Counted from the first letter of the stretch, positions 6,681 through 36,202 are shown. The stretch is DNA of 64,000 nt from a virus (IMGVR_UViG_3300039191_000589:1-64000), one strand, 5' to 3'. Notes: generated by a model from the sequence alone, not told the origin. Numbers and translations are program-made.

Positions 6681-6932
6681 ATGACGATAGGTGCAACTGG
6701 AGAAGTTGAAATAAAACAAGACAAAAATGGATATTGGTTATGTGTTAATGGGGGATCATATCATAATCAATTTTTAGGAATATCTCCACAGGAATATAGA
6801 GAAATATTATATAATTACAATGGAAAATTAAATACTAAAAATTATGTAGTATATTTTAAAAACAAACAAAATATTAAACGGGCAAAACAAAAAATTGAAC
6901 AAATAGTAATAATGAACAAACTAAAAAAGTAA
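6681..6932 (+). CDS. Small paralog-family protein (family P)
   Basis: LGISPQEYREIL...YFKNKQNIKRAKQKIEQIVIMNKL. Confidence 0.8.
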   Translation: MTIGATGEVEIKQDKNGYWLCVNGGSYHNQFLGISPQEYREILYNYNGKLNTKNYVVYFKNKQNIKRAKQKIEQIVIMNKLKK

Positions 6933-6955
6933 AATTTTTATTTTTTTAAAAAGCC

Positions 6956-6984
6956 TTTACAAATTATTAAATTTATGGTATAAT
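6956..6984 (+). promoter_or_regulatory. Early promoter cassette copy 7
   Basis: TTTACA-17-TATAAT. Confidence 0.8.
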
Positions 6985-7033
6985 ATAATTAGAAGGTAAG
7001 GAAAAAGAATTAAAAAACTTGGGGGTAGATACC

Positions 7034-7288
7034 ATGTTTAAAGTAAATGGCTTTTTAATTGACAATAATTTTAAAAAGATTAATTCAAATTTTAGTCAAG
7101 GAGATATTAATTGGATAAATGAAGAGCATGATTTAAAAGTTAATTTATGTAAAAAGAATGATAACCCTATATTATCCTTATATCAAAATGATGTATTTAT
7201 AGCTGAATATTATCTTTCAAATAATAAAAATTGTCAAAAATATAAGGATTTTAAAAGCGATTTAAAATTAATTATGTATAAATGGTAA
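7034..7288 (+). CDS. Hypothetical early protein
   Basis: ATG after TTGGGGGTAGATACC. Confidence 0.7.
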   Translation: MFKVNGFLIDNNFKKINSNFSQGDINWINEEHDLKVNLCKKNDNPILSLYQNDVFIAEYYLSNNKNCQKYKDFKSDLKLIMYKW

Positions 7289-7329
7289 TTAATAACAATT
7301 TTAATATTTGTTATTAATAATAATTAAAT

Positions 7330-7358
7330 TTTACAAACTATATAACTTATGTTATAAT
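7330..7358 (+). promoter_or_regulatory. SigmaA-type promoter upstream of the non-coding hairpin island
   Basis: TTTACA-17-TATAAT with TG. Confidence 0.65.
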
Positions 7359-7457
7359 ATAAATTGTATTAAACACTACTTAGAACATACTTAAAATCAA
7401 TCCAGTTGTTATCTAGTACATAATATAGTAATATATAAGGTATATATACCGCAATTA

Positions 7458-7512
7458 GAGAAGGCCTTAGAAAAAAACTAAGGCCTTCTCAGAGGGTTGC
7501 ACCAATCCCTCT
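7458..7512. other. Two adjacent GC-rich hairpins in a 370-bp non-coding gap
   Basis: GAGAAGGCCTTAG-A7-CTAAGGCCTTCTC (13-bp perfect stem) then AGAGGG...CCCTCT. Confidence 0.6.
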
Positions 7513-7660
7513 CGTACACCATATAAAATTTTAGCCAATTTTTTTACACTTCAATAGTGCATTTAAAAAAATTTCAAGAAAAAAATAAGCCAATTTTTTT
7601 ACACTTTATGTATTTTATTAAGAATTTAATAAATAATTCCATAGGAAAGGATGAGGAGCA

Positions 7661-7942
7661 TTGATAAAAAATTTAGAAATAGTAACAACGAGAATGGAAG
7701 ATAATAAGTATATTATTATGTTAAGAAATATAGAAACAAATAAGTTAATAGAGTGGGATAAAAGTATAGCAGAAAATTTAGGGGTTAGATTGGAATTTTA
7801 TCAACATAAATTAAAAAGTTATGGGGCAAAACAAATGGCTTTTATAGATCAACTACATTTTGAAACAAAAGAAAGTATAAGTAGAGCAAAAAAGTGGATA
7901 GAATCAATTTTAATGTCAAGAACATTTAAGAGGGGTCTTTAA
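7661..7942 (+). CDS. Family P protein
   Basis: DKSIAENLGV...FETKESISRAKKWIESIL; TTG start. Confidence 0.8.
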   Translation: MIKNLEIVTTRMEDNKYIIMLRNIETNKLIEWDKSIAENLGVRLEFYQHKLKSYGAKQMAFIDQLHFETKESISRAKKWIESILMSRTFKRGL

Positions 7943-7983
7943 AGAGATTCCTCTTTTTTATTTTAATTGTTTTTAAAAATATA

Positions 7984-8012
7984 TTTACAAAATATAAAAA
8001 TGTTGATATAAT
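7984..8012 (+). promoter_or_regulatory. SigmaA-type promoter
   Basis: TTTACA-17-TATAAT. Confidence 0.7.
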
Positions 8013-8035
8013 AAAATATAAGGAGGGATATAATA

Positions 8036-8329
8036 ATGCAAGTAAAAATAAAACGATATAATCCTAGAGAATATTATATAGTGATAAAAACAAAAATGGC
8101 AATGAATGATTTAATCTTAGATTATGAAATATCTAAAAAATTAAATCTAACAAAAGAAAAATATCGTCAAAAAATAAGAAATATAGTAAAAGATAATAGC
8201 TATATAGGAAGATTAAGTGGGGATATAATATTTTCAAATAAATCTGATGCTAAAAAAGTAAAAGAATGGATAGAATCAATATTGTTAATAAAAAAAATGG
8301 AGGAGGATAAAAATGAAATATCACGCTAA
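8036..8329 (+). CDS. Family P protein
   Basis: DYEISKKLNL...FSNKSDAKKVKEWIESILLIKK. Confidence 0.8.
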   Translation: MQVKIKRYNPREYYIVIKTKMAMNDLILDYEISKKLNLTKEKYRQKIRNIVKDNSYIGRLSGDIIFSNKSDAKKVKEWIESILLIKKMEEDKNEISR

Positions 8330-8918
8330 TATTGGACAAAAAATAAATGGAGTATATTATATATATTTAAGCTTTGATAAGGGAAATAAAATACCTTTTG
8401 ATGGATTTCAACAATATGGAGCAATGATTGATAAACATATAGCTGAAAAATTAAATATTTCTTATGAAGAGTACCATAATAAATTATTAAGTTATAATGG
8501 ACAATATAAACCTGATGAATATGATAAGCACCATGTATATTTTGAACATAAATATGATGTTAAAAGAGCGTTAAAGTGGGTAGAATCATTAATAATAGCA
8601 AAAAAATGGAGGGAGAAGTTAGTGGATAATATTAAAATTGAAATACAAAAAGTATTAGATAATTATATGATAATATTAAATGAAAATAACAATGATGAAT
8701 ATTATGTAGCTGATATACAAATAGCTGTTTATTTAAATATATATAATGATGAATATCAAAATCTTTTATTGAAAGTAGGAGGGCATAAAGCAGGAGGTAA
8801 AGGGGATATAATGTTTAATAATAAAGAAGATGCAAAAAAAGCAAAGGAATTAATACAATCATTATTATATACTAAAAATATGAGAGAAGAATTAATGTTA
8901 ATTAATAAAGGGGGATAA
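8313..8918 (+). CDS. Family P protein with two tandem domains (possibly two genes joined by a 1-nt loss in an A7 run)
   Basis: Two full motif copies; internal GGAGGG RBS and in-frame GTG at 8622. Confidence 0.75.
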   Translation: MKYHANIGQKINGVYYIYLSFDKGNKIPFDGFQQYGAMIDKHIAEKLNISYEEYHNKLLSYNGQYKPDEYDKHHVYFEHKYDVKRALKWVESLIIAKKWREKLVDNIKIEIQKVLDNYMIILNENNNDEYYVADIQIAVYLNIYNDEYQNLLLKVGGHKAGGKGDIMFNNKEDAKKAKELIQSLLYTKNMREELMLINKGG

Positions 8919-8922
8919 AAAT

Positions 8923-9210
8923 ATGTATAAAATAGTTATAGATAATTTATTAAAAGATAAATATTATATTAAATTAGTTAGTAAAAAAGGAACAAAAACA
9001 TATAATAGAGATTATGATATAGCAAGAATATTAGATATACCAGTAAATGAATATAGAGAAAAATTAAATAATTTTAGAAAAAGACCATATAAAAATAGCA
9101 AAAAAGAAAGTGATATTTTATTAGATTCATATAAAAAAGCACAACAAGCAAAAGAATGGATAGAATCAGTTTTAATATCTAGTAAAATGAAAAATGGAGA
9201 TATATCATGA
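8923..9210 (+). CDS. Family P protein
   Basis: DYDIARILDI...AQQAKEWIESVLISSK. Confidence 0.8.
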   Translation: MYKIVIDNLLKDKYYIKLVSKKGTKTYNRDYDIARILDIPVNEYREKLNNFRKRPYKNSKKESDILLDSYKKAQQAKEWIESVLISSKMKNGDIS

Positions 9211-9228
9211 TAAGAGGGGGATAGTATT

Positions 9229-9486
9229 ATGGCAAATAAAGAAAAAATAAATATATATAAAAATAGATGTTATGGTTATTTTATATCAATTGGGGAATTA
9301 ATAGAAGCTGAACAAATAGCAAATAAAATAGAATTAAAAAAGCAAGAATATTTAAAAAAAGTTAAAAAGGAATATGGTGGAATAAGCCCTCAAGGGTTTG
9401 TAGTATATTTTAATAATAAAAAGAATGCACAACAAGCAAAAAAATGGATAGAAAAAAGATATGTATTATATCAACTAACAAAATAA
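9229..9486 (+). CDS. Family P protein
   Basis: YFNNKKNAQQAKKWIEKRYVLYQL. Confidence 0.8.
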   Translation: MANKEKINIYKNRCYGYFISIGELIEAEQIANKIELKKQEYLKKVKKEYGGISPQGFVVYFNNKKNAQQAKKWIEKRYVLYQLTK

Positions 9487-9557
9487 ACGCTTCAATTTAT
9501 TGAAGCTAAAATCTTAGGTGGATCTTACCTAAGATTTTAATGAAAGGAGAATATAAT

Positions 9558-9833
9558 ATGATAAAAGCTGAAATAAGTAATACAATAGGAAGTAGTTATA
9601 TGCTTACTTTAAAAGATCATGATAAAAATAAAAGGTATGTAACAAATTCATCAATAACAGGATATTTAAATATGGAACAAGAAACATTTAATAAGCAAAT
9701 AAAAAAATATATGAATACTAAAAAATATAAGAAACACTTATCACTTATATTATTTAAAGATAAAAAACAAGCAAATAAAGCTAAAGAATGGTTGGAATCA
9801 ATATTATTAGCTAAAAAAATAAAGGGGGAATAA
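9558..9833 (+). CDS. Family P protein
   Basis: FKDKKQANKAKEWLESILLAKK; ATG 9558 after AAGGAG. Confidence 0.8.
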   Translation: MIKAEISNTIGSSYMLTLKDHDKNKRYVTNSSITGYLNMEQETFNKQIKKYMNTKKYKKHLSLILFKDKKQANKAKEWLESILLAKKIKGE

Positions 9834-9834
9834 T

Positions 9835-10116
9835 ATGGAATTTAAAGTAGTTAAAGCAATGGGAAGAAATAAAGATCATTATTATATAGCATTCCATGAT
9901 GGAGAGTTTTATATAGATAGTGATAGAAAAATAGCTGAAATAGTAAATTTACCTATAGAGCAATATATTTATAAATTAAAAAATAAATTTAATGCAACAA
10001 CTCTTGATTATGAATGTTTAGTATATTTTAAAAATAAGATTGAAGCAAAACAAGCAATGGAATGGTTAAGGTCAAGAATATTAATAAAAGAATTAAAAGG
10101 GGAGGGGAGGCAATAA
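9835..10116 (+). CDS. Family P protein
   Basis: DRKIAEIVNL...YFKNKIEAKQAMEWLRSRIL. Confidence 0.8.
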   Translation: MEFKVVKAMGRNKDHYYIAFHDGEFYIDSDRKIAEIVNLPIEQYIYKLKNKFNATTLDYECLVYFKNKIEAKQAMEWLRSRILIKELKGEGRQ

Positions 10117-10472
10117 TGATTAAATCAATACATGATACTAAATTAAAAATAAAAGTATTAGAATATACTAATAAATATAGTATAGCATTAATTAATAAAA
10201 AAACAGAGGGAATAAGTCTTGTAGATGATGATAATATAGCAAGGTATTTAAATATATCTTTAAAAGAATATCAAAGCTACTTAATAAACAAAGGAGGAAT
10301 TAAACAAAAAGAAAATATAGTTTTTTATAATAAAGAACAAGTAAATAGAGCAAAGGAAATAATAGAGTGGTTATTAATTACTAAAAAAGATCGTAAACAA
10401 AGATCTAGAAAAACAATAAAAATAGATGTAAGTAAAGCAATAAAAGAATTAAAAGAGGAAGGGTTAATATAA
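10116..10472 (+). CDS. Family P protein with C-terminal extension
   Basis: DDNIARYLNISLKEY...FYNKEQVNRAKEIIEW; ATG overlaps previous TAA after GGAGG. Confidence 0.75.
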   Translation: MIKSIHDTKLKIKVLEYTNKYSIALINKKTEGISLVDDDNIARYLNISLKEYQSYLINKGGIKQKENIVFYNKEQVNRAKEIIEWLLITKKDRKQRSRKTIKIDVSKAIKELKEEGLI

Positions 10473-10496
10473 TAAGAAATAAAGAGGGAGGATAAA

Positions 10497-10775
10497 ATGA
10501 AATTTAAAATTCATAAAAATTCTAAAGATATATATTTTATAAGGCCTAAAGAGGAAGGTAAAAAATATTTTAAATATATTATGCATAAGGATTTATCAAT
10601 TGCTAATTTATTAAATATAGAATTAAAAGAATATAAAAATAAAATTAAAGATAAATTTAATATAATACAATATAAAGGGGGAGGAATATTTTTTAAAACA
10701 AGGGACGAGGCTATTAAAGCTAAGGAATGGATAGAACAACAATATATATTAAATAGATTAAGAGGGGAGGGATAA
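10497..10775 (+). CDS. Family P protein
   Basis: DLSIANLLNIELKEY...FFKTRDEAIKAKEWIEQQYILNRL. Confidence 0.8.
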   Translation: MKFKIHKNSKDIYFIRPKEEGKKYFKYIMHKDLSIANLLNIELKEYKNKIKDKFNIIQYKGGGIFFKTRDEAIKAKEWIEQQYILNRLRGEG

Positions 10776-10780
10776 ATATA

Positions 10781-11071
10781 ATGGATATTAAAATAAAACA
10801 AAATAATGATAATTATTATTATATAAAAATAATTGTTGAAGAAGGAAATATGATAGAGAATGATTGATTTATAGCTAATTCAATAGGATTAGAATTAAAA
10901 GAATATACTAATATACTAAAAGAAAGATTTAATGCAATTGAACCTTATAAAGAATATCAATTATTTTTTAAAACTAAGATAGATATTAATAGATTTATAG
11001 AGTGGTTAGAAAGGCAATATGTATTACAAAAATTAATTAATACAAATAGTAATACAGATGTTAACATATAA
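10781..11071 (+). pseudogene. Family P gene with an in-frame TGA at 10865-10867 (absent from ORF track); pseudogene or TGA read-through
   Basis: MDIKIKQNNDNYYYIKIIVEEGNMIEND*FIANSIGLELKEY...FFKTKIDINRFIEWLERQYVLQKLINTNSNTDVNI; RBS GGAGGG. Confidence 0.75.
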
Positions 11072-11510
11072 TATAAACAATATATATTACAAGAATCAAT
11101 TAATACAAATAGTAATACAAGTGTTAACATATAACAAATTCCAATTAATAAAATTTTTGTATTATATTATAAAAAATCTATTTACAATTTAATTAAAGTA
11201 TGATATAATATAATAGAAGTTAATAAAAAATATATAAGACCAATTAATATAATGAGCTATTTATTAAAAAGGCGAATTAAACAATATATATTATAAGAAT
11301 TAATTAATACAATTAGTAATACAGATGTTAACATATAATATAAGCAATATATATTACAAAGATTAATTAATACAAATAGTAATACAAGTGTTAACATACA
11401 ATACAAATAATATATATTATAAGAATTAATTAATACAAATAGTAATACAGATGTTAACAAACAGTATATTACAAGAATTAATTAATACAAATAGTAATAC
11501 AGATATTAAC
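11015..11510 (+). repeat. Six copies of a ~57-bp unit, mostly 63-bp period, in two blocks (starts 11015, 11078; 11282, 11345, 11408, 11462)
   Basis: Consensus CAATATATATTACAAGAATTAATTAATACAAATAGTAATACAGATGTTAACATATAA; copy 1 is the 3' end of the 10781 gene. Confidence 0.85.
11181..11209 (+). promoter_or_regulatory. SigmaA-type promoter between the two repeat blocks
   Basis: TTTACA-17-TATAAT with TG. Confidence 0.7.
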
Positions 11511-11575
11511 TCGCCATAATAGATATAAGCTCAATTTAGATATAGGTCTATTTAATTAATATAAGGAGGTAATAT

Positions 11576-11875
11576 ATGAATAATAATAAAGTAACAATTA
11601 AAGTTAAAGAACATAATGGTAACTATTATATTGAATATAGAGAAGATAGTGATTTAACAAATTATGGGATAATAACTCAATGTTTACCAGCAATAGGAGT
11701 AGCTATAAATGAAGATAAAGATAAATTTATTAAAGATATTAATAATAAATTTAATTTAAAAATAGATGAAGATACTCATATTAATTATTTTAATAAAAAG
11801 GAAATTGCTAATAAAATTGCTAATTGGATAAGATCAAAATATATATTAAATAAAATGACTAATAAGGGGAGATAA
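11576..11875 (+). CDS. Family P protein
   Basis: YFNKKEIANKIANWIRSKYILNKM. Confidence 0.8.
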   Translation: MNNNKVTIKVKEHNGNYYIEYREDSDLTNYGIITQCLPAIGVAINEDKDKFIKDINNKFNLKIDEDTHINYFNKKEIANKIANWIRSKYILNKMTNKGR

Positions 11876-11876
11876 T

Positions 11877-12179
11877 ATGGGATCTAATAAGTCTAATAAA
11901 TCTAATAAAAAGATTATAGTAACGAGTGGAAAAAAAGATGGTTTATATTATATTAACATTAAAGGAGTAGGCGGAAAAAGAGAGACCTTTTTAGATCCTA
12001 ATTTAATTTCTATATTATGTGGTATTAAACAAAAAGAGTATAAGAAAATTTTAAATAATAAATTTAATGGAAAACATAAAGAACATAATATATGTTTTAA
12101 TAATAAAGAAAATTATAAACAATTTGCTGATTGGTTAGAATCATTAATAGTAGCTAAAAAAATAAATAAGGAGTGGTAA
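11877..12179 (+). CDS. Family P protein
   Basis: GIKQKEYKKIL..KFNG...FADWLESLIVAKK. Confidence 0.8.
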   Translation: MGSNKSNKSNKKIIVTSGKKDGLYYINIKGVGGKRETFLDPNLISILCGIKQKEYKKILNNKFNGKHKEHNICFNNKENYKQFADWLESLIVAKKINKEW

Positions 12180-12180
12180 T

Positions 12181-12483
12181 ATGGAATACCAAGTAAAACC
12201 TATAAAAATGCAATTATCAACATTTAGATTGAGAAAGAAAGTATATATAATAAAAGGGATTAAGGGAGGTAGTGAGGAAGCAACGTCGGATCATCAATTG
12301 TGTAAATTGGCTGGATTATCAATAAAGGATTATAGGGATTTAGCAATGGATAAATATGGAGCTAATAGAGAAAGAAAGATAGGGATATACTTTGATGATT
12401 ATAAACGGGCTAAAGAATTCGCTAAATGGATTGAAAGGGGAATATTAGCTACAAGATTAAGGGGTAAAGTAATAAAATGGTAA
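12181..12483 (+). CDS. Family P protein
   Basis: IYFDDYKRAKEFAKWIERGILATRL. Confidence 0.8.
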   Translation: MEYQVKPIKMQLSTFRLRKKVYIIKGIKGGSEEATSDHQLCKLAGLSIKDYRDLAMDKYGANRERKIGIYFDDYKRAKEFAKWIERGILATRLRGKVIKW

Positions 12484-12693
12484 TATTACAAAAGCTTTTT
12501 ATATTATAATAATAATTTTTTGTATAATAAAGCCTTTATATTACAATAAATTTTATGATATTTTGCTGAGATTCAACAATAGCATGGAATAGAGAGCTTT
12601 AGAAAGCTCAGAAGCGTCTCGTGCACGGCACTAGTAGTGTACAAGCCCCCTCCATAGAGTAAAAAGTCTAATTAGAGAAAATATAAAAAAATG

Positions 12694-12722
12694 TTTACAT
12701 GATAAACAAAAATTGATATAAT
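12694..12722 (+). promoter_or_regulatory. SigmaA-type promoter
   Basis: TTTACA-17-TATAAT. Confidence 0.7.
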
Positions 12723-12757
12723 ATAATTGTAACAAAATAAATATTAAAAGGGGGGAT

Positions 12758-13208
12758 GTGATGATAAAGCTAATTATATTAGTATATTTGATATTTGTTT
12801 TTTTAAATATTGCTACCTTTTCAATTCCATTAATAAAGAAATATTGTATTGGTTTAACATTAAAAAAAGAATATATATTAGATTTAATATTTGCAATATT
12901 AGTTCCTTTCCCATTAAATCTTAATCTTTGTAATTTTATAATTAGTAGGGTAGATAATTTTGTTTATTTAGATGTATTAAAAAGATTTAATATTAGAAAA
13001 TATTCTTTTTTAGATAAATTAGACAAACATTATAATGATCTTCCGTGGGGAACTATAAGTGAATATCAAAATTTACCTTTTAAAATAGCTAAAAAATATA
13101 AAGATAAAATTAATTGGGAAATATTAATAAAAAATTATAGGGGGCAATAAAGATGAATTAGAAAAAATTGAATCATATTATATATTAAATAAATTAAAGG
13201 GGGAATAA
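12758..13208 (+). CDS. Membrane protein, paralog of the 13528 gene; frameshifted at a G5 run (13140-13144)
   Basis: Track ORF ends at 13150; removing one G restores RGNKDELEKIESYYILNKLKGE*, matching SGNKEELKKIESYYILNKL in the paralog. Confidence 0.7.
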
Positions 13209-13210
13209 TA

Positions 13211-13531
13211 ATGAGTTATAATTTTCAAACTTTTGAAGTAGAAAATTCTAAAAAAAATGAATATAAAATAAAAATGAATAGTTTTGAGGGAAGTCACTTT
13301 TTATATGCTGAGAGTAAAAATAATAGACTTGAAAAAGATGATGAAATAGCAAAAATTTTAAATATGACTTTAGAGGAATATCATCAAAAATTAATTAATG
13401 ATTTTAATGGAGTTAAAAAAGAATGGGGAAATGAAATATTGGTTAATTTTAAAAATAAAGCTAATGCTATGAAAGCAATTGCTTGGGCCCAATCAAGATA
13501 TGTTGGTCTTAAATTAGGTGGTCAAATGTGA
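13211..13531 (+). CDS. Family P protein
   Basis: DDEIAKILNMTLEEY...FKNKANAMKAIAWAQSRY. Confidence 0.8.
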   Translation: MSYNFQTFEVENSKKNEYKIKMNSFEGSHFLYAESKNNRLEKDDEIAKILNMTLEEYHQKLINDFNGVKKEWGNEILVNFKNKANAMKAIAWAQSRYVGLKLGGQM

Positions 13532-14106
13532 TTAAAACATATTGTATAATGATAAGCTTTCTTTATATAGCAGGGATATTGACAACAAATCTTATTTTTT
13601 ATTTAAGAAATAATGAGATAAAAAAAATGTGAGTAATAATGAAAGATAAATATAAAAGAAAAATATTAAAAAAAAGATTTATTCCTTTTCCTCTTAGCAC
13701 ATCTTTTTTAGATGAATTATCAATAACTCAAACTATGATAATGGGGGGAATGTTACATCAATATTATAGTGATGATAAATATAGAAAACAAGTTATTGAA
13801 ATATTAAAAAGATTTAAATTAAAAGATAAATATTTAGGTAATTTTAAATATAAAATAAATTGGAAACAGATATGTAAATATCAAGATCTATCTTTAGCAT
13901 ATGTAAAAAAATATAAAAAATATATATATTGGAAAGTTCTTTTAAAAAATTATAGTGGTAATAAAGAGGAATTAAAAAAGATTGAGTCATATTATATATT
14001 AAATAAATTAAATAATGATATTAATGACGAACCTAATGATGAAGATGAATATATAATTAAATCATTATTAAAAACAGTAGAAAATTTTAAAGTAGGAAGA
14101 TATTAA
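13528..14106 (+). CDS. Membrane protein with in-frame TGA at 13630-13632 (track calls only 13639-14106)
   Basis: GTG 13528 with AGGTGG RBS gives MIKTYCIMISFLYIAGILTTNLIFYLRNNEIKKM*VIMKDKY..., in frame; hydrophobic N-terminus parallels paralog 12758. Confidence 0.65.
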
Positions 14107-14219
14107 TGTATTTCTTCGTATGATTCAAAAAGTGCAGCCATAAATATATTATAATAAATATATAAAAGAGGTGATTTTTTTAACAAAAAATTTAAATTAT
14201 TTTAAAAAGGTTTTATAAT

Positions 14220-14274
14220 TAGATATTAACTCTCCAGGCAAGCTGTCGAGTTAATATCTAGAGCGAAGCTCTAG
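14220..14274. other. Overlapping hairpins including a GCGAAGC mini-hairpin
   Basis: TAGATATTAACTC...GAGTTAATATCTA (13-bp stem) and CTAGAGC-GAA-GCTCTAG. Confidence 0.6.
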
Positions 14275-14311
14275 GTTACAAGTAAGTTGTTACTAAAAAA
14301 TAGTTAAAAGG

Positions 14312-14749
14312 GTGATGTTAATGGAAGTAGATAAGTTAGTAAATAAAATACACAACGGATTAAAGTTTAATAAAATGATAAATATTTCTAAAGATACTAT
14401 AGAAGAAATCTTATTACTAAGAGAAAAAATTATTAACCAAAAGAATATTGATAATTTAATTGATAATAATAAAGATTACTTACATTTATCTCCAAACCAA
14501 ATCTATATTGATTTAGACTTTTCTAATATAAAAAAAGATTTAATAGAACATTATAAAAATGCTGATATTAAAGATTGTAATAGTATAATAACAATTTATT
14601 TAGATAATTTTAAGTTTTCTGTTAATAGTATTGGTGAAATAACTGTTATTGAATATAATATATCTAAAAAAGAGTTATTTAATGAGATTAAAACTATTGA
14701 GTCAATCTTTCAAAAATATTGTAATAATTTTAAAATAAAAGCTAAATAA
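14312..14749 (+). CDS. Hypothetical protein (start may be 14321)
   Basis: Open frame, RBS AGGGTGA. Confidence 0.65.
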   Translation: MMLMEVDKLVNKIHNGLKFNKMINISKDTIEEILLLREKIINQKNIDNLIDNNKDYLHLSPNQIYIDLDFSNIKKDLIEHYKNADIKDCNSIITIYLDNFKFSVNSIGEITVIEYNISKKELFNEIKTIESIFQKYCNNFKIKAK

Positions 14750-14760
14750 AGGAGGTAATT

Positions 14761-15036
14761 ATGAAAGATGTAGATTTTGAGATTGAAAAGAATTGTTCTC
14801 GATATTTAGAAAATTATATAATAATAGGAAAATCATTTAATAAATATTATTATGATAAAGGGACTGCTAAATTATTAAATATTTTTATTGATGATTATAA
14901 AACTATAATGAAAAATAAATTTAATGCTAAATTATCAAGTTATAATCAAGTATTTTTTAAAACTAAAAAAGATGCTAAAAAAGCATTAGAATGGATAGAA
15001 AGTAAATATTTAATAATAAAATTAAAGAGAGGATAA
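14761..15036 (+). CDS. Family P protein
   Basis: KFNAK...FFKTKKDAKKALEWIESKYLIIKL. Confidence 0.8.
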   Translation: MKDVDFEIEKNCSRYLENYIIIGKSFNKYYYDKGTAKLLNIFIDDYKTIMKNKFNAKLSSYNQVFFKTKKDAKKALEWIESKYLIIKLKRG

Positions 15037-15041
15037 TAAAA

Positions 15042-15362
15042 ATGATATATAATGGTGTTGAATTTACTTTAGATGATATTAGTTTTAAAATAGTAAAATA
15101 TGGAGAATTAACAAAAAAACAAAACATTAGATATGGTATTAGAGCTAATATTAGTGAATCATTATCAATTAATGATTATAATATTGTTAAATATTTATTA
15201 GATATGTCGCTTATGGATTATAGGTGGTATCTAGTGGATAATTTTGATGGTCAAGGTGATATACATGGTGATGTATATTTTAGGTGTAAGAGTGATGCCA
15301 GAGATGCTTTAGAATGGGTACAATCTAATTTTATTATAAAAAAATTAAAAAAGGGGAAATAA
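15042..15362 (+). CDS. Family P protein
   Basis: YFRCKSDARDALEWVQSNFIIKKL. Confidence 0.8.
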   Translation: MIYNGVEFTLDDISFKIVKYGELTKKQNIRYGIRANISESLSINDYNIVKYLLDMSLMDYRWYLVDNFDGQGDIHGDVYFRCKSDARDALEWVQSNFIIKKLKKGK

Positions 15363-15364
15363 AA

Positions 15365-15691
15365 ATGAAAAAAATTTTAATATTTTCATGTATTATATTA
15401 TTATTATCTCCAATATGTGTAGCTAAGGAAAATACTTCAAATTTTATTCTTGTTAATTTAGATGGTACTTATATTAAAATTACCCCACAAAATTTACATT
15501 ATATTGGTATTTATGGATCTAAAAATGATTATTACATAATGTTAAAAATTCTTTATTATAATACTAGAAATAATCAACAATATATGAAATATTGTAGTAA
15601 AAAATTTAAAAATAAATATGAAGCTGAAAGTCGTTTGCAAATTATTATTAATAAAATTAATAAAGCATTTAATACAACAATAATTAAATAA
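15365..15691 (+). CDS. Exported protein with predicted signal peptide
   Basis: MKK + hydrophobic stretch + CVA; partial FKNKYEA motif. Confidence 0.7.
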   Translation: MKKILIFSCIILLLSPICVAKENTSNFILVNLDGTYIKITPQNLHYIGIYGSKNDYYIMLKILYYNTRNNQQYMKYCSKKFKNKYEAESRLQIIINKINKAFNTTIIK

Positions 15692-15705
15692 AAAGGAGGG
15701 GTTAC

Positions 15706-15957
15706 ATGAAGTTTAATGTTATTTTAAAAGAGAAAAATTATAATTATGAAGTAAAATTAGATATTGATAAAGAAGCATTTAAAGTGTTAGATTATATTGA
15801 TCAAGAATATGGAATTTCATTTGGGGAAGTTTTTATGGAAAAATTTTCTTGTGGTTGGGATGATGGTAGTTTTATTTTTCAAAATAAAGAAAAAGCTCAA
15901 AAAGCAAAACAATGGTTAGAAAATCAAGCAATGATATTTAAGATGGTTGATAAGTAA
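15706..15957 (+). CDS. Family P protein
   Basis: FQNKEKAQKAKQWLENQAMIFKM. Confidence 0.8.
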   Translation: MKFNVILKEKNYNYEVKLDIDKEAFKVLDYIDQEYGISFGEVFMEKFSCGWDDGSFIFQNKEKAQKAKQWLENQAMIFKMVDK

Positions 15958-15976
15958 AAAAAGGGGGGAATTAATA

Positions 15977-16243
15977 TTGGATTATTATATACTTGGTAAA
16001 GATGAATATGGTTATAGAGTTATGATAAATTATAAATATGAGGATTATAAAATTATTCATATAATTCAAGATTGTTTTTGGTCAAGAAAATATAAACAAT
16101 ATTGTATGGATGAATTAAATGCTAAAATTAAAAAAAGAGAAAATGGAAGAAAAGTAATTTATTTTAATAATGAAAAACAAGTAAAAAAAGCTAAAGAATG
16201 GTTGGAATCACAAGTATTAATGAAAAAAATGAGAATAAAATAA
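15977..16243 (+). CDS. Family P protein
   Basis: YFNNEKQVKKAKEWLESQVLMKKM; TTG 15977 after AAGGGGGG. Confidence 0.75.
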   Translation: MDYYILGKDEYGYRVMINYKYEDYKIIHIIQDCFWSRKYKQYCMDELNAKIKKRENGRKVIYFNNEKQVKKAKEWLESQVLMKKMRIK

Positions 16244-16260
16244 AAGGAGAAGAATAAATT

Positions 16261-16536
16261 GTGAATTATAAAAATTGTTATATTATAACTAAAAGTAATA
16301 AAGGATTTTTAATTTTAATAAAAAATGAATTTTTATATCATAAACATGTACGTATTTTAATTAATATACTTCAATCGAAACAATATAAAAAATATTGTAT
16401 AAATGAATTAAATGCTATTAGTAAAATAGTTGATCCTGATTTTGATAAAAAAAGAATTTATTTTAAAACTAAAAAACATGCTATAAAAGCTAAGGAATGG
16501 TTAGAGTCAAAATTAATGATAGAATTAATGAGGTGA
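16261..16536 (+). CDS. Family P protein
   Basis: YFKTKKHAIKAKEWLESKLM. Confidence 0.8.
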   Translation: MNYKNCYIITKSNKGFLILIKNEFLYHKHVRILINILQSKQYKKYCINELNAISKIVDPDFDKKRIYFKTKKHAIKAKEWLESKLMIELMR

Positions 16537-16540
16537 TATA

Positions 16541-16843
16541 ATGAAAATTGGAGGGATTTCAGTTAAGTTAAATGAAATAAAAATAATATGTCAAGAGGTA
16601 GATAATAATATTTATGCTTTAAATATTTTATTAAATGATAAATATTGTGCTGATTTTGATTTAGCTATAATGAAAAGAATATTAGGTATATCGAAAAAAG
16701 AATTAAGTAATATTATTAAGGGACGTTTTAATGGTAAACAAAAGTATAAATATAGTAATATATACTTTAATACTAAAGAGGATGCCCAGGGTGCACGTGA
16801 ATGGTTTAGATCACAATTATTAATGAAACAACTAGGGAGGTAG
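16541..16843 (+). CDS. Family P protein
   Basis: YFNTKEDAQGAREWFRSQLLMKQL. Confidence 0.8.
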   Translation: MKIGGISVKLNEIKIICQEVDNNIYALNILLNDKYCADFDLAIMKRILGISKKELSNIIKGRFNGKQKYKYSNIYFNTKEDAQGAREWFRSQLLMKQLGR

Positions 16844-16850
16844 TAATAAT

Positions 16851-17114
16851 ATGAATAAATATGAAATTGAATATATAAAAAATTATTCTTCTGGTCATTA
16901 TTTTGTATGTTTAGAAAAAAGCAATGTTAAAGGTAAAAGATTTTTTCCATATGAAATTTGTGATATTTCTAAAAAGGAATATAGAAAAATATTAAAAGAA
17001 GAATTTAATGCTGTAAAGTGGGGAGGTCTTATGGCTTTTAAAAATAAGAATGATGCCAAAGAAATTGAAGATTGGTTAGATTCTTTATTATTGGCCAAAA
17101 CAATGGAGGGGTAA
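16851..17114 (+). CDS. Family P protein
   Basis: FKNKNDAKEIEDWLDSLLLAK. Confidence 0.8.
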   Translation: MNKYEIEYIKNYSSGHYFVCLEKSNVKGKRFFPYEICDISKKEYRKILKEEFNAVKWGGLMAFKNKNDAKEIEDWLDSLLLAKTMEG

Positions 17115-17115
17115 A

Positions 17116-17403
17116 ATGGAACAATATTATACTATTCATTATAACCAATCTAAAAAAGGCTATACTCTTTTAATAAAAGGAGATAATATTAGTCAATATA
17201 GGGATTTACATAAAACACTTAGATCAAAAAGGTATCATAAATATGCTATAGATAAATTAAATGGTAAATTAATTACAATTAAAAAAGATCATGATATAAC
17301 AATAGATAGAATATACTTTAAAACTAAAAAAAATGCTAAAGAGGCTATAAAGTGGTTAAATTCATTATTATTATCATTAAAATTAGGAGGTAATGAGAAT
17401 TAA
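17116..17403 (+). CDS. Family P protein
   Basis: YFKTKKNAKEAIKWLNSLLLSLKL. Confidence 0.8.
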   Translation: MEQYYTIHYNQSKKGYTLLIKGDNISQYRDLHKTLRSKRYHKYAIDKLNGKLITIKKDHDITIDRIYFKTKKNAKEAIKWLNSLLLSLKLGGNEN

Positions 17404-18539: not shown

Positions 18540-18555
18540 AAAAGATGGTGATAAT

Positions 18556-18816: not shown

Positions 18817-18843
18817 TTTTTTTTAAAAAACTATAAAAAACTA

Positions 18844-23127: not shown

Positions 23128-23142
23128 TTAGGGGGTAATATT

Positions 23143-25698: not shown

Positions 25699-25974
25699 AT
25701 GAAAAATTTTAATAATAAAATAACAATAAAAAAAGAACAACCTGGTTATTGTATAAAACATACTAATTATGGTCATAATTATAGTGAATTAAAAATTACC
25801 ATTAAACTTGATATTTCACTTAAAGAATATAGAGAAAAATTAATTAATCATTTTAATGGTTTTTTATATCATGGCAATGTATATTTTTATACTAAAAATG
25901 ATGCTCAGAGGGTCATAGAATGGTTTAATTCTAAGATATTATTAGACACCATTGGAGAGAATGATGTTGTTTAG
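25699..25974 (+). CDS. Family P protein
   Basis: LDISLKEY...YFYTKNDAQRVIEWFNSKIL. Confidence 0.8.
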   Translation: MKNFNNKITIKKEQPGYCIKHTNYGHNYSELKITIKLDISLKEYREKLINHFNGFLYHGNVYFYTKNDAQRVIEWFNSKILLDTIGENDVV

Positions 25975-26236
25975 AATTGAATCTAATCATTATAATGGTA
26001 ATTATTATATTACTTTATGGGATTATAAGAATAAAACAAATTTTATTAATGATAAGAACATTGCTAAATTAATAAATATATCTTTTGAGAAATATCAAAA
26101 AATTCTTCTTAATCAATTTAATGGTGTTTATAAATTTGATAATAATATTGTTTTTAATAAAGAAAATGATATAAAACAAACAATAGAATGGATTGAATCA
26201 AAAATAATAATGAAAAAAATGAATAAAAGTAATTAA
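25952..26236 (+). CDS. Family P protein (start probably 25961 or 25964)
   Basis: DKNIAKLINIS...FNKENDIKQTIEWIESKIIMKKM. Confidence 0.8.
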   Translation: MERMMLFRIESNHYNGNYYITLWDYKNKTNFINDKNIAKLINISFEKYQKILLNQFNGVYKFDNNIVFNKENDIKQTIEWIESKIIMKKMNKSN

Positions 26237-26258: not shown

Positions 26259-26331
26259 ATTTGGTATAATTTTTAGTGTTAATAAAGGTATATAATAAAT
26301 GAAAGAAAATAATAAAAAAAGGAGTGTTAAA

Positions 26332-33506: not shown

Positions 33507-34092
33507 ATTATTTAATGAATCAAAAATTGTTAATTCTCAATCAAAACAACAAAAAAGTAAAATTGATAAAAATAAAAAAAATGATAAACCTAAAAATGAT
33601 TTAAATAATAAATCTAAAGATAATAATGATAATAATAACAATGATAATAATGAGTCTAAAAATAAAGACTTAAAAGAAAAAGAATATAAAGATAAAATTG
33701 ATATTAATATTGATAAAAATAAAAAAAGACCTAAAAAAAATAATTCATATTTAAATACTGTTGAAGATTTTAAAAAAAATCAACAAAATAAATCAAATAA
33801 AATAAATAATAATGATAATAATCAAAATACTAATAAAGATGTTATTAATAAAGAAAAAAATAAAACTACAAATAAAAAAAATAATTCATTAAAACAAAAT
33901 AGAATAGAAAAGATGGTTAATAATGAAAAAAATAAAATAAATGATTTAGAAATAGAAATTCAATTACATTTAAAATTAATAAAAGATACAGGTGATAGAT
34001 CAAAGAAGGAATTATACCAAACTAAAATTGATAGATTCAGAGAAGATTTAGAATATCATAAAAAGAGATTGTATTTTTTAGAAAAAATGTAA
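33493..34092 (+). CDS. Low-complexity N/K-rich protein with C-terminal coiled coil
   Basis: ATG 33493 after AGGTGG. Confidence 0.65.
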   Translation: MAKGKLFNESKIVNSQSKQQKSKIDKNKKNDKPKNDLNNKSKDNNDNNNNDNNESKNKDLKEKEYKDKIDINIDKNKKRPKKNNSYLNTVEDFKKNQQNKSNKINNNDNNQNTNKDVINKEKNKTTNKKNNSLKQNRIEKMVNNEKNKINDLEIEIQLHLKLIKDTGDRSKKELYQTKIDRFREDLEYHKKRLYFLEKM

Positions 34093-34101
34093 TTATTTAA
34101 T

Positions 34102-34128
34102 ACTCAGAGCAATTGCTCTGAGTTTTTT
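34102..34128 (+). terminator. Rho-independent terminator
   Basis: ACTCAGAGC/GCTCTGAGT stem followed by T tract. Confidence 0.75.
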
Positions 34129-34190
34129 ATTATATAAAAGAATATTTTTTTTATTAGTATAATAGAAATATAATAAAGAGGTGTTAATAT

Positions 34191-34886
34191 ATGGCTGAAG
34201 GTAAGGTACATAAACATTTAAAACAAGTTGCGTTAAGATGGCTTAAATTTAAAGTAACTGATCTTGTAGGAGCCGAAGTAAAATTCCATAATGCTTATTC
34301 AGTGGCTGATGCGGCAGGAGTAAATTTAAAAAGAAAAGAAGTTAGAATAATTGAGGTTAAATCATCAAAAGCAGATTTAAAAAGAGATGATAAATTATTT
34401 AAAAAACCAACTTCCTATTACTATCATGCTCATTATTCATATATCATGTGTCCTGAAGGGGTATTGGATAAAAATGATATACCTAAATATTTTGGTTTAT
34501 TATATGTTGATGATTATGATAATGTTGAAGTTATTAAAAATCCAACAAAAAATAAAGGTAGATTAAAAACATATTTTAAAACAACTTTAAGAAGAACTGC
34601 AAGAGCTTTAACTAATGATAAAATATTTAGTAAAGAAAACATTGAATCATATGATAGAACAAATGGCCACTATAAACGAAAGGCTAAATTATGGTTAATT
34701 AGAACTCGTTGTCCTGATTGTAAGAAACATCCAAAAATATTAATTCATGAAGATAATACTAATATTGTAGAATGTCCTAAATGTGGTACTGAAATAGACT
34801 TAGATAAAGCTAAAGTTAATAAAGTGAGTGGTTATAATAAAAAATTTATTAAACAAGCTAATAATCTAATAGATGGTGATAATTAA
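34191..34886 (+). CDS. MmcB-like PD-(D/E)xK nuclease with C-terminal zinc ribbon
   Basis: E...VADA...IIEVKSSKADLKRD.K...Y...YIMCP...IP..FGLL; CPDC...CPKC. Confidence 0.7.
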   Translation: MAEGKVHKHLKQVALRWLKFKVTDLVGAEVKFHNAYSVADAAGVNLKRKEVRIIEVKSSKADLKRDDKLFKKPTSYYYHAHYSYIMCPEGVLDKNDIPKYFGLLYVDDYDNVEVIKNPTKNKGRLKTYFKTTLRRTARALTNDKIFSKENIESYDRTNGHYKRKAKLWLIRTRCPDCKKHPKILIHEDNTNIVECPKCGTEIDLDKAKVNKVSGYNKKFIKQANNLIDGDN

Positions 34887-35311
34887 TGAAAAGATTAATA
34901 AAAAAAGCATCAAATGTATGGGTTGGAGAACCTGAAGTAAGGTTAGATGAAGGTCCATCAGGATGGGAAGCAGGAGCTTATGATGTTACATGTATGAAAC
35001 AAGGGGAAATAAAAATAGATGCTCTTAAGGGTATTCCTGGGGCTAATGGAGAGAATCGACAATGGCATAAACGTGATGGAAAAGAATATTTTGGTAATTA
35101 TTCAAAAGAAGAATGGGAAGAATTTAAAAATGATTTAGAACAAAATGGAATGAAATATCCTATTTTTATTACAGTTGATAAAGATGGCACTATTTTAATG
35201 AGTGAAGGAAATCATAGAATGGAAGCGGCTAAACAATTAGAATGGGATTCAGTTCCTGTTGAAATTAAATATTTTGGAAATTCCCAACAAGATGTTCATA
35301 AATTTGATTAA
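34886..35311 (+). CDS. ParB/Srx-like domain protein with MKRLIKKA leader
   Basis: DLEQNGMKYPI...EGNHRMEAAKQL...VPV; paralog of 41156. Confidence 0.75.
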   Translation: MKRLIKKASNVWVGEPEVRLDEGPSGWEAGAYDVTCMKQGEIKIDALKGIPGANGENRQWHKRDGKEYFGNYSKEEWEEFKNDLEQNGMKYPIFITVDKDGTILMSEGNHRMEAAKQLEWDSVPVEIKYFGNSQQDVHKFD

Positions 35312-35325
35312 GGAGGAAATTAGTA

Positions 35326-35820
35326 ATGAATAAACTAAAACAATTACAAGATACTATTAAACATAAAAATAATGTTATTGAGATTGGTACTCAATTATCA
35401 CAAAAATTAATGCAGATAGGACATGAAAAATTGTCATTAAAATTATTAGAAAGAATTTATAATCATGACAATACTAAATTTTCAAATCGAGAATTTTATG
35501 GATTAGCAGACAATGTTCATGATAAAAGATCATTAAAAAATGTTAATGAAGATCAAATTGCTAAAGAAGAAAAGATGAAATTCATTAAATTTCATTGGTT
35601 TTCTAATAAACACCATCCAGAATATTATAGTGATGTTAATGATATGAAATTATTAGATATTTTAGAAATGTGTTGTGATTGGTATGCGCGAAGTAAAGAA
35701 TTTGATAATGATCCAATAGAATTTTTTAATAAAAAACAAGGTACTCGATGGAATTTTAATAAGGAAATGCAAGAAACAATAATAAAACATTTAAGAGCTT
35801 TAAAATCTTTAGATAAGTAA
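35326..35820 (+). CDS. DUF5662-like (HD-related) protein
   Basis: HK...HD.TKFS..E...H...NKHHPEYY...M...DILEM.CDW.ARS. Confidence 0.7.
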   Translation: MNKLKQLQDTIKHKNNVIEIGTQLSQKLMQIGHEKLSLKLLERIYNHDNTKFSNREFYGLADNVHDKRSLKNVNEDQIAKEEKMKFIKFHWFSNKHHPEYYSDVNDMKLLDILEMCCDWYARSKEFDNDPIEFFNKKQGTRWNFNKEMQETIIKHLRALKSLDK

Positions 35821-35865
35821 TTTTTTTAAAAGGGTGAAAACCCTTTTATTTTTTTTAAAAAATTA

Positions 35866-35894
35866 TTTACTTTTTTTGTTATGTATGATATAAT
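35866..35894 (+). promoter_or_regulatory. SigmaA-type promoter (early-type island within the later region)
   Basis: TTTACT-17-TATAAT with TG; preceded by hairpin at 35828-35847. Confidence 0.6.
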
Positions 35895-35926
35895 ATTAAT
35901 GTAACAAAATAAAAGGAGGTAGATAA

Positions 35927-36202
35927 GTGAATAAATATAATGTTACAGTTAATAATGATTATGATATTGGTTATTATATTGTTATAGAAGATAATAATAG
36001 TGTTAAAGCATGTTATGATAATGAAATAGCTAGTTTATTAAATATATCTATTGATAAATACAAAAAAGAGTTAAAAAAATTTAATTATATAAGTAATAAT
36101 GGAGAATCTTATTTTAAAAATAAAAAAGATGCTTTAAATGCATCAAAACGAATTCAGGATATATTAATAATGAGTATATTAACTGTATCTGAAAGGAGTT
36201 AA
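35927..36202 (+). CDS. Family P protein (isolated copy)
   Basis: DNEIASLLNISIDKY...YFKNKKDALNASKRIQDIL; RBS GGAGGTAGATAA-GTG as in early cassettes. Confidence 0.8.
   Translation: MNKYNVTVNNDYDIGYYIVIEDNNSVKACYDNEIASLLNISIDKYKKELKKFNYISNNGESYFKNKKDALNASKRIQDILIMSILTVSERS

Follow-up and report, generated by a model that had tools for sequence, protein, structure and literature searches.

A divergent 34-copy array of a small-protein family in a relative of Bacillus phage G and its possible role as a panel of nucleic-acid binders

Arrays of paralogous genes are already known from giant phages. Bacillus phage G harbors a zinc-ribbon expansion of ~35 copies as well as a Myb/RsfA-like helix-turn-helix (HTH) expansion (Iyer et al. 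2021, PMC7824862), and the zinc-ribbon and Myb-type RsfA-like expansions of G-type jumbo phages have been interpreted as transcription factors or as DNA-binding proteins with a structural role (PMC7824862). Phages G and 121Q carry tandem arrays of more than 30 genes, described as "very similar" (Hua et al. 2017, PMC5646251), and tandem duplication has been suggested as one way in which jumbo genomes reach their size (PMC5646251).

The array described here lies in the window, a stretch of 64,000 nucleotides that belongs to a viral record of 110 kb. This record (22% GC, no tRNA found in its 110 kb) amounts to ~26% of a phage G-like megaphage (CheckV completeness 26%); the terminase of the phage shares 61% identity with the phage G enzyme, and the phage is a very AT-rich relative of this giant. 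Its paralogs, termed family P, span 6.7-36.2 kb and are all encoded on the + strand, with 26 of the 34 copies found left of 19 kb, within 12 kb, and the other eight at 21-36 kb. With tens of small-domain paralogs, mostly in tandem, in one very large genome, the array is a real, new example of those known from giant phages. It resembles them in phage group (G), copy number (~35), tandem arrangement and small, possibly DNA-binding domains, but its domain is a different, undescribed one, and the divergence among its copies goes far beyond that of the "very similar" genes of Hua et al. The features are as follows (all on the + strand; P, family P gene; E values from the profile of listed copies):

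3755..18961, +, 13 near-identical promoters (A-rich tract, TTTACA, 14 nt, TGnTATAAT, ATAAT)
promoter starts, first seven, +: 3755, 4511, 4610, 5014, 5742, 6207, 6956
promoter starts, other six, +: 7330, 7984, 11181, 12694, 18844, 18933
6681..6932, +, P, 83 aa, E 2e-18; SD GGAGG
7661..7942, +, P, 93 aa, E 7e-22; TTG start
8036..8329, +, P, 97 aa, E 5e-25; first gene past promoter 7984
8313..8918, +, two-domain P, 201 aa, domains E 2e-23 and 1e-17
8923..9210, +, P, 95 aa, E 2e-22
9229..9486, +, P, 85 aa, E 3e-22
9558..9833, +, P, 91 aa, E 3e-21; SD before 9558; alternative ATG 9540
9835..10116, +, P, 93 aa, E 3e-25
10116..10472, +, P, 118 aa, basic C-terminal extension, E 2e-28
10497..10775, +, P, 92 aa, E 8e-26
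10781..11071, +, interrupted P copy, in-frame TGA 10865-10867; C-terminal part E 1e-15
11015..11510, +, 63-bp tandem repeats (11015-11134 and 11278-11510), flanking promoter 11181
11576..11875, +, P, 99 aa, E 4e-17
11877..12179, +, P, 100 aa, E 9e-24
12181..12483, +, P, 100 aa, E 2e-21
13211..13531, +, P, 106 aa, E 1e-23
14761..15036, +, P, 91 aa, E 2e-24
15042..15362, +, P, 106 aa, E 4e-23
15706..15957, +, P, 83 aa, diverged, E 2e-16
15977..16243, +, P, 88 aa, E 1e-19
16261..16536, +, P, 91 aa, E 1e-19
16541..16843, +, P, 100 aa, E 2e-22
16851..17114, +, P, 87 aa, E 3e-22
17116..17403, +, P, 95 aa, E 1e-16
17393..17689, +, P, 98 aa, E 3e-25
17676..17993, +, P, 105 aa, E 4e-21
17980..18300, +, P, 106 aa, diverged, insertion in beta part, E 2e-15
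18556..18816, +, P, 86 aa, E 7e-24
21255..21749, +, P, 164 aa, E 2e-20 (wider profile 4e-10)
23143..23451, +, P, 102 aa, E 8e-23
25053..25328, +, P, 91 aa, E 3e-22
25396..25683, +, P, 95 aa, E 2e-25
25699..25974, +, P, 91 aa, E 2e-23
25952..26236, +, P, 94 aa (90 aa if ATG 25964), E 4e-27; modelled copy
35927..36202, +, P, 91 aa, outlying, E 1e-23

A sequence-only reading of the window had counted 34 genes with 35 domains, and every one of its 34 starts yielded a family member. Two profiles, one built from the listed copies and the other from these plus 124 database matches (121 from other DNA), each retrieved the identical 34 reading frames (35 domains) at E<=1e-9, with the next best frame at E>0.2, and neither matched anything in the remaining 74 kb of the record (36-110 kb). 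Since both profiles contain the copies themselves, a search with copy 25952 as the single query served as the non-circular check, which by itself located 29 genomic sites at E<0.01. The total is 33 intact genes, one of them two-domain, and one copy with an in-frame TGA. The length range of 80-110 aa given by the same reading held for most copies, the longer ones being 8313 (201 aa), 21255 (164 aa) and 10116 (118 aa).

The interrupted copy at 10781 is probably a pseudogene or subject to read-through; TGA terminates 13 other + strand frames of at least 80 aa, three of them family P copies. The degenerate 63-bp tandem repeats are copies of its 3' end. Gene 8313 is a fusion of two copies, and at the junction its second domain retains an internal start signal, GGAGGG-N8-GTG (~8608-8624). 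Such two-domain fusions arose repeatedly, as relatives from elsewhere (P0005, P0130 and P0138) also carry them.

The copies form one diversified family, as had been proposed: pairwise identity averages 24%, and all 34 frames are matched by both profiles. The closest pair is 41% identical, and no recent duplicates were found among the copies. Because copies at such low mean identity stay open in DNA of 22% GC (33 of 34, with frames of 83-201 codons), nearly all with a GGAGG-type ribosome-binding site, they appear to be kept by selection. The motif layout described earlier was borne out by column statistics over 157 sequences, in its first part (D34 86%, I37 69%, A38 62%, L41 75%, Y48 89%), its middle (F/Y56 82%, N57 75%, G/A58 85%, F68 98%) and its C-terminal part (A77 82%, W80 88%, S83 76%, K89 63%, L90 75%). 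So was the contrast between a divergent N-terminal half and a conserved C-terminal helix, with mean entropies of 3.14 and 2.23 bits, respectively; helix 3 is the best-conserved segment, and insertions and deletions fall in the N-terminal part. Family P proteins have a median net charge of +7 and a median pI of 9.5; in the same phage, the pI is 8.5 for the remaining small proteins and 6.1 for the large ones. The lysine richness of family P is partly a by-product of the 22% GC content, and the pI of some copies (5.1-7.8) makes them neutral or acidic.

The 13 promoters look like sigma-A-type promoters, and the 26 copies downstream appear to be grouped in a few operons, which host sigma-A polymerase would read early. 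Elsewhere in the 110 kb only two weaker sites of this class were found (70469 and 81435), with none on the - strand of the record and none before the eight copies at 21-36 kb. The proposal that most copies lie behind early-type promoters therefore stands per gene run left of 19 kb and fails for these eight. By their promoters, the 26 left-hand copies are probably made early in infection, and family P probably takes up much of the early region of the phage.

Turning to structure, an AlphaFold2 model of copy 25952 (pLDDT 89.9, pTM 0.79) was predicted to consist of three strands, a helix-turn-helix, a beta-hairpin and a long C-terminal helix (pLDDT ~95 for the helix), in the order b1-b2-b3-a1-a2-b4-b5-a3. 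The HTH-like middle suggested previously is supported by the family columns, in which I37, A38, L41, N/G42, I43, S/T44, Y48 and L52 occupy the classical hydrophobic, small and turn positions; most copies retain this canonical signature, and together with the model it suggests that the center of the protein is HTH-like. The check on a common fold thus gave one confidently folded copy, whose closest predicted-structure match is gp97 of phage G (below), the model covering 25952 alone. The family was also rightly called unrecognized, as no Pfam, PHROG or PDB sequence search identified it as a characterized family. The best single Pfam-A or PHROG matches had E>=9e-4, all under curated cut-offs and in one copy each, and HTH, MerR or excisionase Pfam models gave no match to the 34 copies even at E<=10. 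PF12728 (HTH_17) found nothing in the whole 110-kb record at E<=0.01, with controls matched in 11 of 14 genomes.

Among solved structures, the best scores for the model (Z 5.8, Foldseek E 0.24) lie under the tools' meaningful level, and the top-ranked rows are unrelated alpha/beta proteins, e.g., eIF2-beta/eIF5. Where the weak matches span model residues ~18-94, winged HTH proteins of the MerR type recur (CadR residues 1-57, Z 2.8; BldC, 50/51 residues, rmsd 3.1, Z 2.5), joined by RacA, lambda gpNu1 and a small-terminase DNA-binding domain, and the ESM Atlas list contains an excisionase-family HTH_17 cluster (TM 0.53). According to the model, the C-terminal 60 residues would have the layout of MerR/excisionase-type (HTH_17, Xis-type) winged HTH domains, i.e., helix, turn, helix, beta-hairpin and a helix with a conserved Trp; unlike these, family P shows no sequence-profile match to them and Z of just 2.5-3.4, and it has an extra three-stranded sheet at the N terminus, while its last helix is longer. 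KilA-N, APSES and Bro-N domains, which have reportedly expanded to multiple copies in large viruses (Iyer, Koonin and Aravind, 2002), would share with family P an N-terminal beta-hairpin followed by HTH-like helices. Mbp1 was the top Foldseek PDB row, a poor one (E 0.24, TM 0.39, rmsd 7.9 A), Swi6-N (Z 2.5) and a Bro-N protein appeared among the weak rows, and the KilA-N, APSES and Bro-N Pfam families were absent among the matches listed for the 34 copies.

Relatives of family P are found in metagenomes, in 108 to ~950 clusters, all of them small proteins and some in tandem, and are located on phage-like contigs; a motif scan of 185,579 species genomes found none. One JGI relative carries the automatic annotation "predicted HTH transcriptional regulator". 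The sole named relative is the uncharacterized gp97 of Bacillus phage G (AEO93360.1, 101 aa), which shares the predicted fold (Foldseek TM 0.75/0.71, E 6e-5) and a detectable sequence relationship (hhalign probability 72% over 49 columns; family profile E 9e-5). It resembles family P in its C-terminal layout but has neither the conserved Trp nor the helix signature D-x-x-I-A, and no other copy was seen in the 40 kb read from phage G, where it is surrounded by tRNA genes. When the entire phage G genome was searched with a profile, no family P match came up, yet gp97 was missed as well; by the same search, which carries this limit, the expansion is absent from phage G and from two further near-complete G-like genomes. 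In a FastTree tree of 150 sequences, built on ~90 saturated columns, own/other labels changed 23 times, compared to 28.2 +/- 1.6 when shuffled, and 23 of 33 copies had their nearest BLAST neighbor in other DNA. The tree intermingles the copies with those from other DNA and so does not demonstrate a burst confined to this lineage. As a multigene family, family P is old, and its members are mostly basic, single-domain proteins of ~90 aa.

Our preferred explanation, a tentative one given somewhat less than an even chance, is that family P supplies a panel of small proteins that bind nucleic acid through a winged-HTH-like fold and are produced early in infection. Each copy would adopt the same compact fold, in which a three-stranded N-terminal sheet, variable in sequence and length, is followed by the HTH, a beta-hairpin "wing" and a long C-terminal helix that would keep the hydrophobic core together (conserved Trp80). 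The copies would bind nucleic acid, most likely DNA, and each could have its own target through variation in the second HTH helix, the wing and the N-terminal sheet, so that together they might serve as specific regulators or DNA-coating factors for the ~400 kb genome or the host chromosome; the recurrence of two-domain fusions suggests a dimer as the working unit. The HTH signature, the weak MerR-type matches, the basic charge, the JGI annotation and the jumbo-phage precedent favor this explanation, while the missing HTH Pfam match, the sub-threshold structure scores, the effect of 22% GC on lysine content and the acidic copies count against it, as does the fact that no DNA target or operator-like repeat set supports the predicted role. 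The best-conserved polar residues of helix 3, E79 and E82, are acidic and thus do not point to a DNA contact.

The main rival, which we consider rather unlikely though not negligible, is that the copies are small proteins that bind other proteins and serve host take-over or counter-defense; with its variable sheet and loops, each copy would bind and block a different host protein (defense system, polymerase, nuclease or similar), and the HTH-like core would be just a scaffold. The array's place in a probable early region with host-type promoters, where take-over and anti-defense genes of lytic phages usually lie, fits such a panel, as do the extreme divergence and the indels concentrated in surface parts, the confinement to phage-like DNA, the lack of a DNA-binding family match and the few acidic or neutral copies. 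Yet nothing in Pfam, PHROGs, PDB or BFVD likens family P to a known anti-defense or take-over protein, defense-related neighbors were not seen, and the HTH signature kept in most copies would be unnecessary for a mere scaffold, though it is possibly structural.

The conserved last helix had been taken as a constant docking helix, and an adaptor whose recognition half varies while its helix docks on one shared partner, or forms mixed dimers, would explain why helix 3 is the most conserved segment, with four conserved polar residues (E79, E82, S83 and K89) and last turns ([IL][LI][IL][MA]xKL) that are hydrophobic on more than one face; the recurrent fusions also suit it. We regard the docking helix as doubtful, because its conserved positions are mainly hydrophobic, with buried-face spacing (A74, A77, W80, I/L81, L85, I86, L90), and fit a helix buried against the helix-turn-helix and sheet, leaving only the four polar residues as a could-be shared surface. 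The model places this helix in the domain core, and no partner candidate adjoins the arrays, here or in L019, so that the adaptor seems distinctly improbable. Least probable is dispensable filler, in which tandem duplication, the proposed route to jumbo size, inflated the genome and the copies drift with little or no individual function: one copy does hold a stop codon beside degenerate repeats of its own 3' end, but unselected copies of such divergence and base composition would be stop-ridden, while here all other frames are open, core residues and ribosome-binding sites are kept and recent duplicates are absent.

Individual genes depart from the common pattern. Copies 15977, 16261 and 17116 form a subgroup without D-x-x-I-A in the nearest-neighbor table, and gene 21255, with insertions and a C-terminal extension, is located within an AAA/DUF2997 module. 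For gene 7661..7942 an alternative ATG 11 codons inward is possible, and a terminator-like hairpin (7928-7955) lies at its end.

All 34 starts assigned to family P in the sequence-only reading give visibly related translations, and a single copy (25952) used alone as query, a check free of any profile built from the copies, retrieved 29 sites in the record at E<0.01. Two profiles, one built from the listed copies and the other from these plus 124 sequences hit in databases, of which 121 belong to other DNA, recovered the same 34 frames (35 domains) from the 110-kb record at E<=1e-9, with the next frame at E>0.2, and neither found a member between 36 and 110 kb. Twenty-six copies lie at 6.7-18.8 kb and the others at 21.3, 23.1, 25.1-26.2 (four copies) and 35.9 kb. 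A GGAGG-type ribosome-binding site precedes almost every copy. Every gene of the original list is therefore a family member, the list needing correction in two entries: copy 10781 is interrupted and 8313 consists of two fused copies. Other genes lie within or beside the array:

19007-23109: AAA ATPase (479 aa), DUF2997 protein (62 aa) and unassigned small genes, inside the array and interleaved with copies 21255 and 23143
26299-26616: protein of 105 aa that weakly matches the Cro/C1-type HTH_3 (E 7e-4, under the cut-off), directly 3' of the four-copy cluster at 25.1-26.2 kb

The 86-aa gene at 22849-23109 was considered as a further member and not counted, the wider profile matching only ~22 of its C-terminal columns (E 0.23).

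A profile search run exhaustively over 1.84 billion cluster representatives returned 948 proteins with E<=1e-3, of which 108 reached E<=1e-10. The best 150 matches, 29 of them the window's own and 121 from other DNA, are 69-207 aa long and contain two matched domains in four cases (the database relatives P0005, P0130 and P0138, and the window's 8313). Twenty relatives looked up by cluster (one to three members each) came from short contigs of metagenomes and were unnamed or 'hypothetical' save one 'predicted HTH transcriptional regulator'; a Pfam scan of ten relatives detected no known domain. The sole real locus from a motif scan of metagenome contigs was L019 (a JGI contig of 15 kb, 29% GC), in which three adjacent members adjoin a thymidylate synthase, a uracil-DNA-glycosylase fusion and an endolysin, and so family P occurs in tandem in at least one more phage-like contig. 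L019 and the window's record have nothing in common beyond family P. Motif scans of one genome per species across 185,579 bacterial and archaeal species gave no match, and the seven matches among viral contigs were all false, the motif lying inside an unrelated 275-aa protein. A word-index protein search with the family alignment returned the window's own proteins only, the relative P0016 as query retrieved nothing from viral or metagenome contigs, and tblastn of one copy and a 634-aa neighbour against 50,697 phage records yielded nothing significant.

The 34 domains are on average 24% identical in pairwise comparison, with 41% as the maximum, and the sole obvious subgroup is formed by 15977, 16261 and 17116. 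Copies from other DNA are as near to the window's copies as the latter are to one another, and for 23 of 33 copies the nearest BLAST neighbour comes from other DNA. When 150 sequences were placed in a FastTree phylogeny, the own/other label changed 23 times, compared to 28.2 +/- 1.6 under label shuffling, so that the window's copies barely cluster. Either family P was already diverse well before this phage lineage arose, or the tree signal is saturated; the data do not show a recent lineage-specific burst.

The family had not been recognised from sequence, and profile searches bore this out, as no Pfam or PHROG family matched and every weak hit was confined to one copy. The best E in a sequence profile search of the PDB was 0.17, and an HTH_17 profile found no match in the whole 110-kb record. 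Copy 25952, modelled with AlphaFold2 on an alignment of the 34 paralogs (pLDDT 89.9, pTM 0.79), is predicted to comprise strands 5-11, 18-24 and 29-31, helices 34-40 and 45-55, a hairpin (59-61/65-68) and a helix at 71-93. Across 157 sequences the conserved positions form a hydrophobic core (I9, Y18, I20, I37, L41, Y48, L52, F56, F68, A74, A77, W80, I81, L85, I86 and L90), with D34 and D73 as probable helix caps, a conserved N57-G/A58 turn and few other conserved polar residues (E79, E82, S83 and K89). The middle part had been called HTH-like, and the stretch from residue 37 to 52 does appear to follow the canonical HTH order (hydrophobic, Ala, x, x, Leu, Gly/Asn, Ile, Ser/Thr, x3, aromatic, x3, Leu). 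The contrast described between a divergent N-half and a conserved C-terminal helix was likewise recovered: the N-terminal sheet (3.1 bits of entropy) and the hairpin (3.0 bits), where the indels are found, are the most variable elements and the last helix (2.2 bits) the least.

Foldseek comparison of this model to the PDB gave a best E of 0.24 (Mbp1), and an exhaustive VIA-align structure search a best Z of 5.8, short of the tool's own meaningful level. Structure re-ranking placed eIF2-beta/eIF5-type alpha/beta domains on top (Z 5.2-5.6), and, among the weaker rows, those aligned over model residues ~18-94 were repeatedly MerR-type winged HTH proteins (CadR 1-57, BldC, RacA, gpNu1 and a small-terminase DNA-binding domain). 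The ESM Atlas contained an excisionase-family cluster at TM 0.53 and otherwise just unnamed viral clusters, at scores <0.8. The best structural reading, which we consider fairly probable, is a fold resembling the MerR/excisionase winged HTH with an added N-terminal sheet.

Among predicted viral structures there was one clear match, gp97 of Bacillus phage G (TM 0.75, E 6e-5), with support from sequence (hhalign 72%; family profile E 9e-5). It is the sole family copy noted in the 40 kb of phage G read, where it sits among tRNA genes. At E<=0.01 the family P profile detected no copy in the whole of phage G or in four further G-like records (near-complete in three of the five cases), a search that also missed gp97, so that weak copies may escape it. 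Phage G additionally encodes six adjacent proteins of ~93-99 aa, gp102-gp107 (21889-23669 of the stretch L009), which constitute a different small paralog family, unrelated to family P, with the motifs 'SI..VE(V/I)' and 'EEL..IE.MTKGL(D/N)' and, in five of the six, the ending 'EYEI(E/I)Y(K/V)'.

Copy 10781 is interrupted by an in-frame TGA (10865-10867), which falls in a variable column of the alignment. An alternative genetic code was ruled out, as TGA terminates 13 other + strand frames of at least 80 aa, including three family P copies, and aragorn found no tRNA genes in the 110-kb record; copy 10781 is thus broken or read through, with no sign of recoding. Its last 21 codons and stop recur as a 63-bp unit repeated about two and four times (11015-11134 and 11278-11510), on either side of the promoter at 11181, and these repeats could be debris left by slippage or else an array of iteron-like elements or binding sites. 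Gene 8313 looks like a stop-loss fusion of two adjacent genes: at its domain junction (8590-8630) it retains the start signal GGAGGG, 8 nt, GTG, and the second domain may therefore also be made separately, beside the fused product. The 98-aa "separate" version in the databases derives from a 619-bp contig and is uninformative on the gene's state elsewhere, and a single-sequence fold of the two-domain protein (pLDDT 47) was too low for use.

The left part of the array lies in a region marked by one promoter class:

3755-18961, + strand: 13 near-identical promoters (A-rich tract, TTTACA, 14 nt, TGnTATAAT, then ATAAT)

Just two weaker sites of this extended motif occur elsewhere in the 110 kb (outside 3.7-19 kb). 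The promoter evidence is this specific motif and not the raw scan count, since a generic scan gave 190 sites overall vs 187 expected from shuffled sequence, no excess. Several of the 13 share one leader, which ends in a taaggagg-like sequence. Downstream of promoter 7984 lie nine family P genes, of 11181 three, and of 12694 about twenty genes, and the family P genes left of 19 kb look like parts of a few long operons transcribed from these promoters. The earlier statement that most copies stand behind early-type promoters applies to those left of 19 kb and fails for eight copies at 21-36 kb, which are without this promoter class. The 13 promoters probably mark the phage's early region, early timing being suggested by their sigma-A-like consensus.

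The evidence as a whole is consistent with a panel of small proteins, each with specific binding, that are probably expressed early in infection. Binding of DNA or RNA through the HTH-like centre is the reading we rank first, at slightly under an even chance, on the grounds of the helix-turn-helix signature, a basic charge (median pI 9.5 vs 8.5 for the phage's other small proteins) and the precedent in the phage G group, whose members carry expansions of other small putative DNA-binding domains (PMC7824862). Its main rival, in which the panel binds host proteins or defence factors, is possible and clearly less probable. The constant docking helix proposed in the sequence-only reading fared worse: we rate it as rather improbable because the C-terminal helix looks like the core of the domain, while the four polar positions conserved in it and the strong hydrophobicity of its last turns still speak for the idea. 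Drift of useless duplicates is unlikely; 33 open frames of 83-201 codons persist at such divergence in DNA of 22% GC, and each copy is therefore likely to be under selection.

Two-domain fusions recur, which suggests that the working unit is dimeric; a homodimer complex prediction (two copies with the family alignment) scored 0.00 and carries no weight either way. A further reading, marginally less probable than the docking helix, is a combinatorial system in which the small winged-HTH-like copies would form pairs among themselves or bind a single shared host machine, e.g. RNA polymerase. Contact would be made via the C-terminal helix, through its conserved E79, E82, S83 and K89 and its hydrophobic end, and 34 subunits could then yield hundreds of distinct DNA- or target-recognition specificities. 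If true, the phage would encode a diversified repertoire for recognition unlike any described to date.

Large paralog arrays are among the few recurrent, unexplained features of giant phages, which carry hundreds of genes annotated without a function, and arrays of more than 30 paralogs are known from jumbo phages (PMC5646251; PMC7824862). The novelty lies in the family and in the size it reaches in a G-like phage; the cultured relative of this phage has a single distant copy in the part read. The array contributes a compact family with a confident model and a wide metagenomic distribution (about 100 to 950 clusters), and gp97, its sole, distant and uncharacterised relative in a cultured phage, offers together with a few synthesised copies a practical experimental entry. 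Should the copies prove to be specific DNA binders, this phage would far exceed the 1-15 specific transcription factors that a jumbo phage genome is reported to encode (PMC7824862); should their targets be host proteins, they would supply many new inhibitors.

The window covers the first 64 kb of an IMG/VR virus record of 110,097 bp with a CheckV completeness of 26%, and these two values suggest about 400 kb for the full genome. The GC content is 21-25% once the first 4 kb are passed, and nearly every gene of the record is on the + strand; the large terminase is 53-65% identical to that of eight IMG/VR records, and a portal protein, the AAA ATPase, the DUF2997 protein and a 5'-3' exonuclease are recognisable near the array. 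The extreme left end of the record differs in GC (29% vs about 22% further on) and encodes:

within 239-2968, - strand: C5 cytosine DNA methylase
within 239-2968: IS1380-family transposase, with its best plasmid matches in Bacillota (41-44% identity to those copies)

This segment may represent an IS inserted into the phage, flanking host DNA or a junction made during assembly. The early-type promoters 3755, 4511 and 4610 come straight after it. A search of sequencing runs for the record's words listed no RNA run among its results, and a salt-lake metagenome DNA run held a small share of the words and six 151-nt pieces identical or with one mismatch, insufficient to name the habitat firmly; this run may be the source sample itself. 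Two further genes look like auxiliary metabolic genes and would be of interest if the habitat is saline:

23623-24996: Na+/H+ antiporter-family membrane protein (457 aa)
31137-32393: alpha-amylase-family protein (418 aa)
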